Source: a virus
Taxonomy: Duplodnaviria; Caudoviricetes
DNA length: 64,000 bases
Virus record (IMG/VR): IMGVR_UViG_3300021400_000034
Coordinates: 1-64,000 of that record
Reading direction: 5' to 3' (one strand)
Positions 36,133 through 46,998 of the stretch are shown in pieces. The translations under genes and the position numbers were made by a program. The notes under the pieces were generated by a model. The model ran no database searches. It worked only from the letters and a program-made list of their open reading frames with translations, and was not told the origin of the DNA. The number at the start of each line of letters is the position of its first letter. Positions within the stretch are counted from its first letter, which is position 1.

Positions 36133-36658
36133 CGAGCACAAGAAGCTCACTAAGCGTCGTAATAAAAACGTAAAGAAGTCACCGAAGAAAAAGATAATCG
36201 ACCAAGACAAGAAGCGTAAGCTCAGACACTCGCGACAGTGGCGAGAGCTCAAACGCTATCTGATTTCGAAGAGAGGCGAGATTGACGAGATAACTGGAAA
36301 GAAGATCATCAAGGAGGACAAGCTGACTTGCCATCACATGAGGCTCACTGCCGAGAAGTATGGAGACTTCAGCAATCCCGATGACTTCATGCTGCTAGCT
36401 GAGTCGACCCATCAAGTGGTTCACTGGCTGTGGCAACTCACGAAAGGCGAAGACTTTTCTATATTAGATAAGCTCAGAGACACTCTGAAAAGAATGAAGG
36501 AACTGGAAGATGAAGATAGCCGGACTGGATCTATCGATAACTCACACGGGTGCCGTGATAGTCACTCTGGACGAGACGCTGACTGTGAAGGAAGTGACTT
36601 GGCTGACATTCACGACTACGAAGAAGTACTCGAGCGACAACTGTCTATGGTATGCTGA
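36107..36658 (+). CDS. HNH endonuclease-like protein
   Basis: S.QW..LK...DEITG...LTCHH...NPDDFMLL..STH..VH; start codon uncertain. Confidence 0.65.
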   Translation: MTTEYGRSDEHKKLTKRRNKNVKKSPKKKIIDQDKKRKLRHSRQWRELKRYLISKRGEIDEITGKKIIKEDKLTCHHMRLTAEKYGDFSNPDDFMLLAESTHQVVHWLWQLTKGEDFSILDKLRDTLKRMKELEDEDSRTGSIDNSHGCRDSHSGRDADCEGSDLADIHDYEEVLERQLSMVC

Positions 36659-37163
36659 AGAGCAGTTCGCGGACAAGTATGACAAGTACAAGTTCATGCA
36701 GGACCGCATACTCGACTTCGTAAGAGACGCTGACATGGTCGCAGTCGAAGACTACGCTTTCGGCGCGACGGGCCAGATAGGCTTGGTGTTCGACCTCGCT
36801 GAGTTCGAAGGCTGGATCCGACAGTCGATCTGGCGCACAGGAAAGCCTCTCTACCTCTACTCTCCGATGACGATCAAGAAGGTATTCACTGGCCACGGAG
36901 ACTCGGACAAGAAGTCGATGTGGAACAGCTATGTAAAGATTTCTGAACCTAAGCCAGACTTGAGCGCTATGCCTCTAGTCACTAACGGAAAGAAAGGCGC
37001 GAAAGGAACGTCAGACGTGGTTGACGCGTACGCTGCTGCGATGACGCTGAGAACTGAGCTTCTCATCGAGCGAGACGGAGCCGCTGCATTCCCCAAGCAC
37101 ATTCAAGAATTCTGGAAGAATAGAACTCGGACGGTCATACAGAGACCAAAGGATCAATTGTAA
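36510..37163 (+). CDS. ruvC: RuvC-like Holliday junction resolvase
   Basis: IAGLDLSITHTG, VAVEDY, LAE, P.TIKKVFTGHG.SDK, DVVDAY. Confidence 0.88.
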   Translation: MKIAGLDLSITHTGAVIVTLDETLTVKEVTWLTFTTTKKYSSDNCLWYAEEQFADKYDKYKFMQDRILDFVRDADMVAVEDYAFGATGQIGLVFDLAEFEGWIRQSIWRTGKPLYLYSPMTIKKVFTGHGDSDKKSMWNSYVKISEPKPDLSAMPLVTNGKKGAKGTSDVVDAYAAAMTLRTELLIERDGAAAFPKHIQEFWKNRTRTVIQRPKDQL

Positions 37164-37165
37164 AG

Positions 37166-37897
37166 ATGAGTTTACAGATAACTGCTGAGACATTCGACGA
37201 GCTGTCTGACAAGATGGCTATGTATGTGATGGAGAACTTCAAGTGCAACTCGAGTCGCGTGGATGACGTGGAGCTGACGTGCTTCAGCACTAAGACTGAC
37301 AACATACGCGCTCACATCACTGAGCGCACTAAGAAGATGATTCAGGTAAGGCGCATGTACGTGAACGAGAACGAGATCGACCGCTCTCATCGGGAGATGG
37401 TCAAGAACGGCACTGGAACGTTCAACTTCAATCAGGTCAAGCATGACTATGACCACGTGCAAGGAGGCTGTCTGCTCAGCATGATTCTGACTCCAGATGA
37501 AGTCACTGTCAACCTGCGCGCTTCTGTCGTTCCGTGGAACCTGCAGTTCGACCTCGTCCTGATCGACGATCTTCTGAAAGAGATGGGGATACAGCCGAAG
37601 AAGATATTGTTCAAGATCGGTTACGTTCGCACGAAGGTGATTCACGCGCTCTACTGGTACATCAGGAACGGATGGAACCCAGAGCAGATCTGTCAGTACC
37701 GCTTCGGAAGGGCTTGCATCGCAGCATACACTAGAGGCAAGCGTCCAACCTGCAAATACCTCAACTGGATCAGATTCACTGGCTGTGTCGACAAGCTCAG
37801 AGAAGAGTACGGCATAGGAGATCTCGTCGAAGCTCTAGATCACTGGAAAGCTATAAATAATACAGAAAACCTAGAAAAGGCGGAAGAAAATGGCTAA
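37166..37897 (+). CDS. Divergent thymidylate-synthase-fold protein
   Basis: N-terminal ITAETFDEL, GGCLLS, VNLRAS...LQFD. Confidence 0.5.
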   Translation: MSLQITAETFDELSDKMAMYVMENFKCNSSRVDDVELTCFSTKTDNIRAHITERTKKMIQVRRMYVNENEIDRSHREMVKNGTGTFNFNQVKHDYDHVQGGCLLSMILTPDEVTVNLRASVVPWNLQFDLVLIDDLLKEMGIQPKKILFKIGYVRTKVIHALYWYIRNGWNPEQICQYRFGRACIAAYTRGKRPTCKYLNWIRFTGCVDKLREEYGIGDLVEALDHWKAINNTENLEKAEENG

Positions 37898-38509: not shown

Positions 38510-38538
38510 TTTACAGATCACTAGGATTTTCTTATATT
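38510..38538 (+). promoter_or_regulatory. Early promoter
   Basis: TTTACA-N17-TATATT, after a terminator hairpin at 38470-38505. Confidence 0.75.
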
Positions 38539-38561: not shown

Positions 38562-38984
38562 ATGACCAGGATAGATGCATTGACACAAAAAGAAGCGATG
38601 AAAATCTTAGTGGAACAAGGATTTGAATTCGAGGATCCTGATGCATACAAGTGGCCGTCCATCTTCTTAGCTGATGAGCGAGTCGGAACTATGTATGACG
38701 ACGAAGTCTATCTCGCCCAGCACATGCCGAGCCTCTTCGACGGCAACTATCAGTCGACTTCGAAGAGCTGCATCAAGTACTCAGAGAGTCAGGAAGAAGA
38801 GAAGCTGCAGTACGCTATCGACAAGCTCAAGTACTCGCTCAGAGAGTACGAGAAAGAGAAGAGAAAGCTGCGCGTTAAGCGAGTACAAGAGTACTTCCAG
38901 CAGAGAAACGAAGCTTACAAGCTGATAGCGACGATGGAAGGAATTCAGACACGGATAGATACGTTGATAGAGAAACTCACATGA
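38562..38984 (+). CDS. RVxxVxxYF family paralog 1
   Basis: TQKEAMKIL..GF N-terminus; RVKRVQEYF. Confidence 0.75.
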   Translation: MTRIDALTQKEAMKILVEQGFEFEDPDAYKWPSIFLADERVGTMYDDEVYLAQHMPSLFDGNYQSTSKSCIKYSESQEEEKLQYAIDKLKYSLREYEKEKRKLRVKRVQEYFQQRNEAYKLIATMEGIQTRIDTLIEKLT

Positions 38985-39364
38985 ATCAAGTTGAAGGCTT
39001 TCACGTCGTTCCGGTCGGACCTGACGGCTATCCAGCGCCCGATCTAGCTTCCCCTCCAGTCAAGGTGCAGATCGGCGACATCTACCTGACTCAGTCGTCT
39101 GAGCGCACAGCATACACGGAGTGGATTCGCGCTGGATCTGAGTGGGTTCATGTCGGAGAGACTACATCAGACCTGTCCGAAGTCGACAGGCTGAAGAAGC
39201 AGCGCGTAAACTCTGTGCGTGACTACTTCCGCCAGAAGGAAGAGCAGTACAAGAAGCGCAAGAGATACGAGGCAGCGACAGAGCTAGTCAGCTTCTTCGA
39301 GGAGCACAATGCTGATCCTGAGCTCCATTCCGTCGTCAAGCATCTGTGGGAGGACATGAAGTGA
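38981..39364 (+). CDS. RVxxVxxYF family member 2
   Basis: ATGA coupling; RVNSVRDYF. Confidence 0.75.
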   Translation: MNQVEGFHVVPVGPDGYPAPDLASPPVKVQIGDIYLTQSSERTAYTEWIRAGSEWVHVGETTSDLSEVDRLKKQRVNSVRDYFRQKEEQYKKRKRYEAATELVSFFEEHNADPELHSVVKHLWEDMK

Positions 39365-39729
39365 CTAGAGACGAAGCTATAGAGTTCTTAGAGAACAACG
39401 GATTCACTGTAACTGATTTGTCCGTAGATGTAAAAGGAGGAATCATGACTCGTGTAATCACGCACAGATATACTCCAGAGCTCTCGGTCGGATTTCTCTT
39501 AGAAGATACTATCAAGCTGCGAATAGATGTCTTGCCTCCGATGGACACTCAGTGGACTGGAGAGCTGCTATACTCAGACGATGACGATCTCATACGTCGA
39601 CAGGTACTGAAGTTGAAGGCGCACATTCTCACACAAGACACGCGCCTGAGACGCCAGAGGGTAGAGAACATTCGCAAGTACTTCGGCTCACGCGCTCTTC
39701 TCGGAACAGGACAGGAGATGATGCTATGA
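39361..39729 (+). CDS. RVxxVxxYF family paralog 3
   Basis: GTGA coupling, GGAGG SD; TRDEAIEFL..GF; RVENIRKYF. Confidence 0.75.
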   Translation: MTRDEAIEFLENNGFTVTDLSVDVKGGIMTRVITHRYTPELSVGFLLEDTIKLRIDVLPPMDTQWTGELLYSDDDDLIRRQVLKLKAHILTQDTRLRRQRVENIRKYFGSRALLGTGQEMML

Positions 39730-40067
39730 CGATGGATGAAGCTCTGCAGATGCTGCTGGATAACGAGTTCACGTACGACAGGACGATCAACCAGATATAC
39801 TACGATGACGAGCGTGTCGGAGAACTTGCAGGAAATGTCCTCTGGCTGTGCGACTTCCAGCCATCTCTGATCAACTTATCGTTCCTGCAGGTACACAAGA
39901 CTATCATAAACTGCGTCGCAGAAGACTCAGAACGCAGGCTACGCGAGCAGATAGCGAACCTGCTGGACACACCGAGACGATATGAAGAGTTCTGCCAGAA
40001 TGAAAAGATAGGGAACATGAAGAAGTACTTCGAAGACCGAGCGATCGTGAAGAGGTGGATGGTATGA
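39726..40067 (+). CDS. RVxxVxxYF family paralog 4
   Basis: MTMDEALQML; KIGNMKKYF. Confidence 0.75.
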   Translation: MTMDEALQMLLDNEFTYDRTINQIYYDDERVGELAGNVLWLCDFQPSLINLSFLQVHKTIINCVAEDSERRLREQIANLLDTPRRYEEFCQNEKIGNMKKYFEDRAIVKRWMV

Positions 40068-40477
40068 CCGAAGCTGAAGCGTTAGAGATTCTCAAGAAGC
40101 ACAACATACACAGAGGGAACTATGACACTGAGCGCCTGTTTCTACTAGAGGGTGACGAGATTCTCGGCGAACATATAGGAGAGATCGCTAACGGCTACAT
40201 CTACATCGCTGACTACATACCCAGTGTCATTGGAAAGACATACCCGTCCGTCTCTGACACATCTGTTCTGCTGTCTAACCCAGACGCTCCAGCAGTTCTC
40301 AACAGGATGCTCGATCGGCTAAAAGATTCAGCAGAGCGGTATGAGGAAGAGATCAGACGCAAGAGAGTCTCTGACATCCACCAGTACTTCCTCAAGCGCA
40401 ACATGAAGATCAAGATCCTTCCTCCAGACGTAGAGATCCCAGATCCGCCAGACGAGGGCACTCTCTACTTCAGATAG
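40064..40477 (+). CDS. RVxxVxxYF family paralog 5
   Basis: MTEAEALEIL; RVSDIHQYF. Confidence 0.75.
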   Translation: MTEAEALEILKKHNIHRGNYDTERLFLLEGDEILGEHIGEIANGYIYIADYIPSVIGKTYPSVSDTSVLLSNPDAPAVLNRMLDRLKDSAERYEEEIRRKRVSDIHQYFLKRNMKIKILPPDVEIPDPPDEGTLYFR

Positions 40478-40501
40478 GTAGAGTTTTTGTTCACAAAAGG
40501 G

Positions 40502-40530
40502 TTTAGATTTCTCACAGATTTACCTATATT
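40502..40530 (+). promoter_or_regulatory. Early promoter
   Basis: TTTAGA-N17-TATATT; AGGACC leader. Confidence 0.75.
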
Positions 40531-40562
40531 AGCTGTGTAAACCTCAACACATAGGACCAACC

Positions 40563-41027
40563 ATGAGCATACACGACCTGCTTGACAAGTCGAGAGGACC
40601 GCTTCCTGGAAGCGTCGCGAACAACCGCAAGTTCGTGATCAAATATATGCGCAATCACGGGTTCGAAGTCAAGGAAGACGCTCAGAGCGAATATCCCAAT
40701 AAGTACTTGTACTATCTGCGTGGTGAGTTCGTGGCGTGGTCATATGAGAACATCATGTATCTCCAGCCAGTTCTGCCATCGCTCGTCGATATGGGCATTC
40801 TGGCGCAGAGAAGAAAGACCGAGATACCGTTCGATCTGCCAGGCATCGAGGTCCACAATCGTCTGCAAGCTGCTGTGATGGAACTCAAGAACAGCGCATC
40901 GTCTTATGATGAGCTAGTCAAGAAGTCTAGAGTGCAGAAGGTACGAGAGTACTTCAAGTACAGGAATATCGCAAAGCAAGATGTAAGAGAGTACAACAGA
41001 CTCATGAAAGGGCTGATGAGGATATGA
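40563..41027 (+). CDS. RVxxVxxYF family paralog 6
   Basis: RVQKVREYF. Confidence 0.75.
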   Translation: MSIHDLLDKSRGPLPGSVANNRKFVIKYMRNHGFEVKEDAQSEYPNKYLYYLRGEFVAWSYENIMYLQPVLPSLVDMGILAQRRKTEIPFDLPGIEVHNRLQAAVMELKNSASSYDELVKKSRVQKVREYFKYRNIAKQDVREYNRLMKGLMRI

Positions 41028-41377
41028 ATCGAGAAGAGACATTGAGAATCCTGAAGTGGCACGGCTTCGATGTAGATGGTCTTGACTTCATCTGGTACAA
41101 AAGCGACCGGATAGGAGAGCTCTCGGGAGCCTTGCTCATGCTAGTAGACTACATTCCTTCTGAGATCGATGCAGACTATCGAGCCGTCGACAAGACTATC
41201 ATAAACATAAACAACCATGACTCGATAGAACGCTTAGAGCATCAGGTCAACTTGATATACAACACACGTAGACGATGGGAAGAGCACTTGCGCAAGTCAC
41301 GCCTCCAGCGAATGCGCAAGTACTTCAAAAATAAGAGAATATCCGCTGAGTACTCACAGAAGGAGATGACTGTATGA
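41024..41377 (+). CDS. RVxxVxxYF family paralog 7
   Basis: MNREETLRIL.WHGF; RLQRMRKYF. Confidence 0.75.
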   Translation: MNREETLRILKWHGFDVDGLDFIWYKSDRIGELSGALLMLVDYIPSEIDADYRAVDKTIININNHDSIERLEHQVNLIYNTRRRWEEHLRKSRLQRMRKYFKNKRISAEYSQKEMTV

Positions 41378-41715
41378 CGCTGAACGAAGTATACGAGTAC
41401 CTGAAGATGAACGGCCTTCCAGTCACCTTCCACGACGACAATACGCGCATAAGGCTGGAGGGATCGACCGCAGCTCTCGAAAACATAGTGTTTCTCAAGG
41501 TTTACATGAACAATAATGACATGTCCTGCACTGTAGCTAACGAGCCTTTCGTCTTGCTCGTTGAAGCTACGTACCGAGATCTCGACAAGCTAGTCGATTC
41601 GTATATAGAGCACTGCGATCACGACAGAGCTAAGAGAATACGTGTGTCTAGACTGAGATACGCTGTAGATCTGCACCAGAGGCAGACAGTCTACAGGCAG
41701 ACACAGACCGTCTGA
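41374..41715 (+). CDS. RVxxVxxYF family degenerate member 8
   Basis: MTLNEVYEYL..NG; RIRVSRLRY. Confidence 0.65.
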   Translation: MTLNEVYEYLKMNGLPVTFHDDNTRIRLEGSTAALENIVFLKVYMNNNDMSCTVANEPFVLLVEATYRDLDKLVDSYIEHCDHDRAKRIRVSRLRYAVDLHQRQTVYRQTQTV

Positions 41716-42340
41716 CCCTCTGAGAAGAAGATGATCCTCCTCTATATCTACTCCTCCATACCCCTCATAGGAAGACCAGTATTGGCACCTTTCTAGACCC
41801 CTTTCTTGGCCATATAACCCGGCCTAAAACCGGCATATTTCCCGGGTCCCAGTAGAAACTCATCGCACTCTCGAAAAATTGTATTAAGGCATATAGGGTA
41901 TCTACCCCTCCTCTCTCCCTACCCCTCCCCATATCGCACCGACTCCCGCTCACTCACGCGTGAAGAAATTTCCCCAAAATTTTTTCGCAGAATCCGCAGG
42001 GTCACCGCACGGAATCCGAAGAACTCCTCTAACACCTCTAAACCCCTCTAACCCCTGCTAATGTTAGGTCGCGTGAAATTTTTTTCCAAAAAAATTTTTT
42101 CCAAAAATTTTGGAAGATGTTGAAGATGATGAAGATGCGCTGAATCTTAGATCGCGAAGAAATTTTTCCAAAAAATTTTTCAGAAAATTTTTGGGCGATT
42201 TTGTTCCATATAGCGCATTTCTCGTGAGATAGCGGAACAACTGTCGTCCCCGCTGATCTTGATAGAATGTAAACTTCTCGTTACAATGAGAAACCCAAAC
42301 CGACCCAGATGATGTTGATGATGAAGATGATGAAGATTGA
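41716..42340. repeat. Non-coding locus with A/T-tract repeats, C-tracts and GATGATGAA repeats (origin/packaging-site candidate)
   Basis: CGCG(T)GAA...AAATTTT..CCAAAA.TTTT three times (~41957, ~42070, ~42153); CCTCTAA repeats 42026-42061; GATGTTGA.GATGA.GA.GATG at ~42116 and ~42311. Confidence 0.6.
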
Positions 42341-42396
42341 AAATATTTCTTTACAACAATTCGGGTTTAGCTGTTCTGGAGGAAATTCTATATTCA

Positions 42397-42714
42397 ATGA
42401 TGAACCTGAACGAGAGGCTAATAGTGAACATGGGAGACTTCGACACACTAGACGAGCTCGAGCGAGAGCCCACTGAGGAAGAGATCCGAGCAGATCGCGC
42501 TGCGAACGTTCGTGAGTACTTCAGGACCAAGAGGGACGGAGAGGAGTTCCGTCCGGTCTCCGAAGAGAGGAAGCGCTATGTCTTCACTGACACGTTCGAC
42601 GACTTCAAGGAGTTCACGTCGACGATCGAAGAGAAGTCTCAGGCAGTCGAAGAAGCTATCGATACCGTGGGCGCTACGATAGGATATCTCTTGACTAAGG
42701 ACTCTTTCATCTGA
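42397..42714 (+). CDS. RVxxVxxYF family member 9
   Basis: RAANVREYF; TTTAGC-N17-TATATT promoter at 42366-42394; start uncertain. Confidence 0.65.
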   Translation: MMNLNERLIVNMGDFDTLDELEREPTEEEIRADRAANVREYFRTKRDGEEFRPVSEERKRYVFTDTFDDFKEFTSTIEEKSQAVEEAIDTVGATIGYLLTKDSFI

Positions 42715-46137: not shown

Positions 46138-46998
46138 ATGACTAGAGACTTTGAAACATCAGAGATGAACGACTACCTCCGAGGGACTCTCAAAGACTGC
46201 CCTCCGATGTCACGTCGAGAGGAAGATGCGGTCATCGACATTATGCTCGACGAGACTAAGAGCCGAAAGGTTCGACTTCTCGCTCGAAACAAGCTCATCA
46301 GCTCTCACAGCCGATTAGCTTACAAGATCGCTATGGAGAAAGCCCGAGGCTGCGGCAGATCCGTAGCGGATCTATATCAAGCTGCACAGTTCGGAATGAT
46401 TCTCGCTACCTTGAAGTACGAGAAGAAGTACGGAGTCAGGTTCACTTCATTCGCTGTGTGGTGGATCCTGCAGCAGATCAACTGGGAGATCTACATCGCG
46501 AACGACGCAGTCCACGTTCCGAAGTACACTAAGGACAAGCTCAGAGACCTGCTGAAGAACAAAGGAAAGCTCGATCTGTCTCCGATCGAGATAAGAGAGT
46601 TCCAGATCTACGCTAACGCTCCAGTCGTCTCGATCGATCATCCGATCGCTGGATCCGAGTTCGGAGACCGTGAGGGAATGACTTACGCTGACACCATCGA
46701 AGCAGACTATCGTGAGATCGAGCGTGTATTCACGAAAGATGAAGACGAGAAGCTCGGCGAGATAATCAAGGGAGCTCTGAACGAGAATGACTTGAAGATA
46801 TTGAGAGACACTTACGTGAACGGCTACACTCAAGAAGAGATGGGCAACTTACTAGGTCTGTCTGGAGAGAGAATGCGCCAGAAGAAGAACAGGGCCGTCA
46901 TGAGGGCGCAGAGCGCACTGAGGAAGCTGATGAGGGAGAAAGACTTCATCTACACCAACAAGTGCGATGAGATGTGCGTAAAGGACATTCTGGAATGA
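46138..46998 (+). CDS. Sigma-70 family RNA polymerase sigma factor
   Basis: Region 1.2 YL...PPMSRREE; region 2 RNKLI..H.RL, DLYQ...G, Y....GVRFTSFAVWWI.Q.I; region 4 TQEEMG..LGLSGERMRQ. Confidence 0.9.
   Translation: MTRDFETSEMNDYLRGTLKDCPPMSRREEDAVIDIMLDETKSRKVRLLARNKLISSHSRLAYKIAMEKARGCGRSVADLYQAAQFGMILATLKYEKKYGVRFTSFAVWWILQQINWEIYIANDAVHVPKYTKDKLRDLLKNKGKLDLSPIEIREFQIYANAPVVSIDHPIAGSEFGDREGMTYADTIEADYREIERVFTKDEDEKLGEIIKGALNENDLKILRDTYVNGYTQEEMGNLLGLSGERMRQKKNRAVMRAQSALRKLMREKDFIYTNKCDEMCVKDILE

Follow-up and report, generated by a model that had tools for sequence, protein, structure and literature searches.

A conserved Tyr-Phe helix on small early-type proteins of an uncultured rumen phage, a candidate docking handle

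We analysed a window of 64,000 nucleotides, the first 64 kb of the complete 243,336-bp virus record IMGVR_UViG_3300021400_000034, an uncultured rumen phage with T4-like gene content. Between positions 38,562 and 42,714 the window holds an array of nine small genes, here g1 to g9, and all nine open reading frames (ORFs) listed by a first-pass annotation of this DNA exist on the + strand. Eight of the nine encode the same 15-residue helix, R-x-x-R-[VI]-x-x-[VIM]-x-x-Y-F-x-x-[RK], hereafter the YF helix. With a little better than even confidence, we read this helix as a portable handle by which the proteins dock onto a single common partner, which is probably of host origin.

The pattern matches 10 of 1531 ORFs, eight of them in this array, with 0.32 matches expected from shuffles. 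Scored with a matrix trained on relatives only, the eight YF genes reach 25-35 bits, and in 20 rounds of shuffling not one ORF came to 18 bits. The eight YF peptides quoted in the first-pass annotation are correct. Its description of the motif as C-terminal is too strict, with 11-63 residues separating the motif from the protein end. Y and F are invariant in all 112 family members, at a mean column identity of 19%, and the [VIML]-x-x-Y-F core is found in nearly all of them. Positions R-3, R0, V/I+1, V/I/M+4, Y+7, F+8 and R/K+11 lie on one 120-degree arc of the helix. The helix carries a net charge of +4 and the bodies are acidic (mean charge -4.7, 87% negative). There is no excess hydrophobic moment (0.21, compared with 0.23 in shuffled sequences), so that it qualifies neither as a classical membrane helix nor as a good coiled coil with itself.

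As for codon usage, the Arg positions of the motif draw on all six codons and the Val positions on all four. TACTTC dominates among the YF codons, at a level similar to Tyr-Phe pairs genome-wide (83/110). Judged from its codons, the motif is conserved at the protein level, and an explanation at the DNA level, through AGTACT, is ruled out by the codon variation. A search of the PDB with the motif profile gave a designed lipid-scaffold peptide as its only match, which is not significant (E 0.23). We treated a motif-like stretch at genome position 122496 as chance (12 bits, 0.65 expected per genome, no homologue in the relative G001) and a C-terminal LxxFF in the topoisomerase as structural.

The array is laid out as follows, in window coordinates:

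38510..38538, + strand: putative early promoter TTTACA-17-TATATT, one of about 33 alike in the genome
38562..38984, + strand: g1, 140 amino acids (aa), main body; YF helix at 38862-38906
38981..39364, + strand: g2, 127 aa, unrelated beta-module body (G-D-x-Y-L ... W-I ... W-x-x-x-G); YF helix at 39194-39238
39361..39729, + strand: g3, 122 aa, divergent main body, GTG start; YF helix at 39649-39693
39726..40067, + strand: g4, 113 aa, main body, E 1e-18 to g7; YF helix at 39996-40040
40064..40477, + strand: g5, 137 aa, main body with Pro-rich tail; YF helix at 40355-40399
40502..40530, + strand: putative early promoter TTTAGA-17-TATATT, which doubles as a crossover point between relatives
40563..41027, + strand: g6, 154 aa, main body with N-terminal extension; YF helix at 40920-40964
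41024..41377, + strand: g7, 117 aa, main body (modelled: domain 1-79, helix 81-116); YF helix at 41291-41335
41374..41715, + strand: g8, 113 aa, distant paralogue (hhalign probability 96%, E 1e-9) with a second helix class, R-psi-x-x-[LF]-R-x-A-[IV]-x-x-H, at 41632-41676
41716..42365, no strand: non-coding, with A/T tracts and both inverted and GATGAA-type repeats; conserved alongside the array in every relative examined
42366..42394, + strand: putative early promoter TTTAGC-17-TATATT, preceding g9
42430..42714, + strand: g9, 94 aa, short acidic leader and unrelated acidic tail; YF helix at 42487-42531

The helix is found on very different proteins. The bodies of g2 (beta-module) and g9 (acidic leader and tail) are indeed unrelated to the others, in agreement with the first-pass annotation. 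Clustering of the parts upstream of the helix gives a main family of 63, a g3 subgroup of 8, a g2 beta-module group of 9, and singletons, one of which (L004:7444) joins an N-terminal transmembrane-like segment to a YF helix. Five further peptides of 38-70 aa are hardly more than a YF helix and have no domain. The g2 module is weakly similar (E 0.03) to part of a putative tail protein of this phage (genome position 81148), which suggests that it was captured. Because the same helix sits on several unrelated bodies, it is not a buried part of one known domain, the finding that the first-pass annotation had named as fatal to its idea of a portable docking peptide. The portable half of that idea stands, with at least five unrelated bodies, bare micro-proteins, a position beyond the body in a structural model and conservation at the protein level; docking is what we infer from it.

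Another copy of the helix lies outside the window, 85 kb away, in a single-copy gene behind an early promoter (genome 126912-127799; L007:7913-8800). Its product of 295 aa has the YF helix near the end, followed by a Lys/Ala-rich tail. YF is invariant in 22 homologues, which are 60-89% identical, and the array profile independently finds the tail of one such homologue (E 2e-5). No family match and no clear fold match was obtained for this protein. A complex prediction of its core (residues 140-262) with g7 speaks neither for nor against binding (score 0.05, mark 0.32).

Furthermore, in the relative G001 a YF helix (19 bits) is at the C-terminus of a 248-aa late-operon protein encoded on the minus strand (L068:11452-12198) and absent from this genome. 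This protein has a leader like those of candidate head proteins and may on that basis be packaged in the virion. By eye it contains a winged-helix-like segment, which has no database support.

The site of the array is syntenic in all relatives examined, with the terminase/RuvC block on one side and on the other a putative neck gene, possibly T4 gp14-like. Arrays at this site have 2-23 genes; motif genes number only 2-3 in G001, and in L004 they make up 21 of 22 consecutive genes.

The helix of g8 belongs to a second class. The first-pass annotation had given it as a degenerate RIRVSRLRY, which is misaligned: the true register is R90-V-S-R-L-R-Y-A-V, with A-V replacing Y-F, and this form is kept in relatives. 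Relative to the YF class, this AV/AI class has L/F in place of V+4, A-V/I in place of Y-F, and His at +11. It rides on a distant copy of the main body (g8). The two classes recombine, as indicated by a chimera, P0184, in which an AV-class N-terminal half is joined to a YF-class C-terminal half. Another protein, P0182 (69 aa), has two YF helices in tandem.

The main body itself is a small acidic alpha/beta domain. Clear paralogy is found among g1, g4, g5, g6 and g7 (E 1e-4 to 1e-18), and g3 has weak pairwise similarity to other array genes (E 0.02-0.7). By sequence comparison g1 and g3-g8 are paralogues, and their body is outside known families. Profile searches retrieved 123 close and 72 cluster-level relatives, none of them, among those listed, with a Pfam domain on record, and every relative whose contig was inspected falls in this phage clade. 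Searches of Pfam, PHROGs, NCBIfam and PDB sequences with the nine genes and the 112-member alignment gave no meaningful match that would name the body, and the annotated phage genomes gave no match to the family. A longer fused form of the family was not found, which is weak evidence.

An AlphaFold2 model of g7, built with 112 sequences, has a predicted local distance difference test score of 95. It consists of a helix, beta-meander, helix body (residues 1-79) and then a single motif-bearing helix (81-116). In the model this helix projects past the folded body, so Y and F would be exposed. The best fold matches span only residues 1 to ~90 and share the topology of the body: YjbR, TfoX-N, frataxin/CyaY, the MotA C-terminal "double wing" and type III chaperones, with Z 4.4-5.5, a root-mean-square deviation of ~3 A over ~70 residues and template modelling scores of 0.46-0.53. 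The scores are middling and the functions unrelated, the best (Z 5.5) being tied with Mediator and type III chaperones. In contrast to the topology, there is no sequence match to these folds, profiles did not place the body in the YjbR, TfoX-N or MotCF families, and the long YF helix lies outside the matched part. Foldseek searches of PDB and BFVD with g7 returned nothing significant (E 0.6 or worse). DNA binding of the MotA kind is disfavoured because the bodies are acidic.

In terms of expression, the promoters reported by the first-pass annotation at 38510 and 40502 are both present, and so are its (A/G)TGA overlaps, at g1/g2, g2/g3, g3/g4, g4/g5, g6/g7 and g7/g8. Its start for g9, at 42397, does not hold: that ATG follows the -10 box by only 3 nt, and a close relative has ATA there; the start is most likely 42430, downstream of the gene's own early promoter. 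Near-identical TTTA[CG]A-17-TATATT sites occur about 33 times genome-wide. We take them to be of early type because this promoter class is separate from the T4-type late promoter TATAAATA. The TTTA-19-TATATT spacing (e.g. at 38510) is also compatible with the TTTG / TAnnTTTG consensus of Bacteroidota promoters. Downstream of many early promoters there is a conserved leader of the AACAAAGGACC type.

The array is also being shuffled. Near-identical tails follow the YF helix on bodies that are only 14-23% identical, and in relatives the Pro-rich tail of g5 recurs on different bodies. In DNA comparisons with relatives, blocks of identity end at three kinds of site: the motif, the promoters and the ATGA junctions. 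Read from these breaks, the motif also acts as a crossover point, at which heads and tails are exchanged. Recombination there would renew heads and tails and keep the handle, because the motif is the longest homology shared by neighbouring genes.

If the YF helix is a docking handle, the partner would offer an acidic, partly hydrophobic groove, and all YF members would share this one protein. A host partner is likelier than a phage partner, since the genes are of early type and one carrier may be delivered with the virion; such a partner would be present when infection starts. The variable acidic bodies would be cargo (inhibitors, decoys or adaptors) brought to the docking site, for which the bare YF peptides would compete. 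The AV/AI class may then be a second key. A wider version, which we put forward only tentatively, is a modular adaptor system in which the YF and AV/AI keys dock interchangeable captured domains onto one host machine from the first minutes of infection, the key sequence being at the same time the recombination joint. Its members would include one anchored in the membrane, one delivered by the virion, and bare peptides acting as competitors.

Some observations weigh against docking. About 70% of the motif genes are paralogues of one body, and therefore much of the repetition of the motif is shared descent. In the 295-aa protein the helix seems, from the ranges of fold matches, to pack into its own three-helix bundle and would thus be structural there. 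In one relative the array is down to 2-3 genes.

The YF helix could instead be an element of self- or cross-association, with mixed oligomers formed, possibly of YF with AV/AI members, and no outside partner. We consider this unlikely. The 36-residue helix does project from the monomer model, the genes are translationally coupled, YF is large and AV/AI small at the same register, and the bare peptides could be dominant negatives. However, Arg/Lys at core positions beside only three hydrophobic layers, together with the +4 charge and the lack of excess moment, make YF-YF coiled coils unfavourable.

Distinctly less probable is an Arg-plus-aromatic element like those of lambda N or Rev, through which the bodies would be held on phage nucleic acid (RNA or DNA), for instance on the adjacent non-coding segment. 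The conserved Arg and aromatics share one face of a +4 helix, that segment accompanies the array in all relatives examined, and the 295-aa member has a Lys/Ala tail. Nevertheless, the two conserved aliphatics on the same face would fit a protein surface better, and the bodies are acidic. As for the non-coding segment itself, which is conserved next to the array in seven relatives, it could be an origin or a packaging/entry site.

The first-pass annotation saw in the motif a likeness to PIP-box (PCNA-interacting peptide) or clamp-binding peptides, and pointed to the gp45 clamp. A T4-type gp45 is encoded at genome position 155268 (phrog_223, E 1.5e-8), as is a clamp loader (phrog_168). The psi-x-x-Y-F spacing fits. 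Like known clamp peptides, the YF helix is a short portable motif on unrelated proteins, with an aliphatic-x-x-aromatic-aromatic core, and a helical clamp peptide has a precedent in T4 ligase, which engages gp45 in the form of an amphipathic alpha-helix (PMC6212786). Known clamp peptides are QL[SD]LF for the beta-clamp, LDFL in T4 gp55/gp33, LDFLF in T4 ligase and the PIP box Qxx[IL]xxFF (PMC9690074, PMC6212786). Even so, the motif is not a canonical PIP box or beta-clamp motif. The glutamine anchor is present in just 8/72, one subfamily with Q-x-x-V-x-x-Y-F, and the strict PIP pattern Qxx[IL]xxFF in 1/91; the motif is neither LDFL nor QL[SD]LF (PMC9690074). The conserved Arg-3 and Arg0, kept on the same helical face, play no part in known clamp motifs. 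Moreover, this 15-residue Arg-flanked face is carried by small early orphans, and the phage polymerase, which one would expect among the clamp's clients, lacks such a motif at its C-terminus; gp45 is not directly preceded by an early-type promoter. That the YF helix loads proteins onto the phage gp45 sliding clamp is therefore improbable in our estimate.

We give slightly less weight again to the motif as a relic of duplication and gene conversion that lacks a shared function and persists as a recombination joint or as a structural helix. The crossovers are located at the motif and TAC TTC prevails among its codons. Against this, TACTTC is used as in Tyr-Phe pairs genome-wide and other positions vary synonymously; furthermore, YF is invariant in the single-copy gene 85 kb away and kept in domainless peptides. 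Finally, a membrane-targeting amphipathic helix is hardly credible: the helix is basic with aromatics and one member has a transmembrane-like segment, but there is no excess hydrophobic moment, Arg sits mid-apolar face, and Y and F are never exchanged for L or W.

Neither portable tags on diverse phage proteins nor variable early arrays are new in kind. The T4 internal proteins have an N-terminal, cleaved capsid-targeting sequence and are expressed late. The capsid-targeting sequence resembles the YF helix in being one short tag on highly variable small phage proteins, recognised by one machine; it differs in its N-terminal position, its cleavage and its late genes, the YF helix lying close to the C-terminus and mostly in the products of early genes. 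Candidate leaders of the capsid-targeting kind exist in this phage as well, distinct from the YF helix. One is E-A-x-x-x-L-[ER]-x-x-G-x-x-x-E, a candidate capsid-targeting signal found on many genes (genome 110777, 122496, 128790 and others; L001:7808, 10226; L005:4865), several of them behind late promoters. It resembles the first helix of the array family, and genes with this leader are interspersed in relatives' arrays.

The array, with its variable genes behind sigma70-like promoters between conserved core genes, has the make-up of the T4-type hyperplastic regions, where variable non-essential early genes, strong sigma70-like promoters and promoter crossovers are also found (PMC2839356). 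Those regions are shuffled at PeSL cassettes, in which a promoter is joined to a terminator stem-loop; of these two elements, promoters were found here. Here, unlike in those regions, a protein motif is common to the genes, and crossovers are also intragenic at the motif, with tails swapped. Bacillus phage G has ~35 Zn ribbons, a lineage-specific expansion in a jumbo phage that is likewise a many-copy family of small proteins, of function unknown (PMC7824862); there the constant element is one whole domain, and in our case a helix that moves between folds. No description of the family or motif was found in the family databases and the literature searched, the latter with incomplete coverage.

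The majority of early genes in large phages are orphans, and one invariant two-residue handle on dozens of them makes the set jointly testable. A shared target, if true, would be a host or phage hub exploited across this rumen-phage clade. One protein motif can be both a conserved function and the recombination joint of a fast-changing array.

As for the phage itself, its gp23-type capsid protein has only ~30% identity to any cultured phage. The genome encodes a T4-like set of clamp, clamp loader, primase, UvsX, helicases and topoisomerase. Its relatives were recovered from gut metagenomes, several of them with a bovine gut label, and the names of the records suggest rumen studies. Fib_succ_major and DUF285 domains, present in large putative tail proteins, hint at a Fibrobacter or Bacteroidota host. 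The phage encodes an IF-1-like translation initiation factor (L008:8461-8682, genome 198460) with ~50% identity to bacterial relatives, and its comparison with GTDB gave no indication of the host. Two short contigs within the array occur in the RNA library of a possible source sample, which is no demonstration of transcription. An RpoD-like sigma factor at 46138-46998 of the window (phrog_351, E 1e-30), with an early promoter in front, suggests a middle transcription phase. Lastly, a 243-aa orphan adjoins the RuvC-like gene (window 36510-37897; L066:5166-6574) and occurs in G001 as two tandem paralogues.

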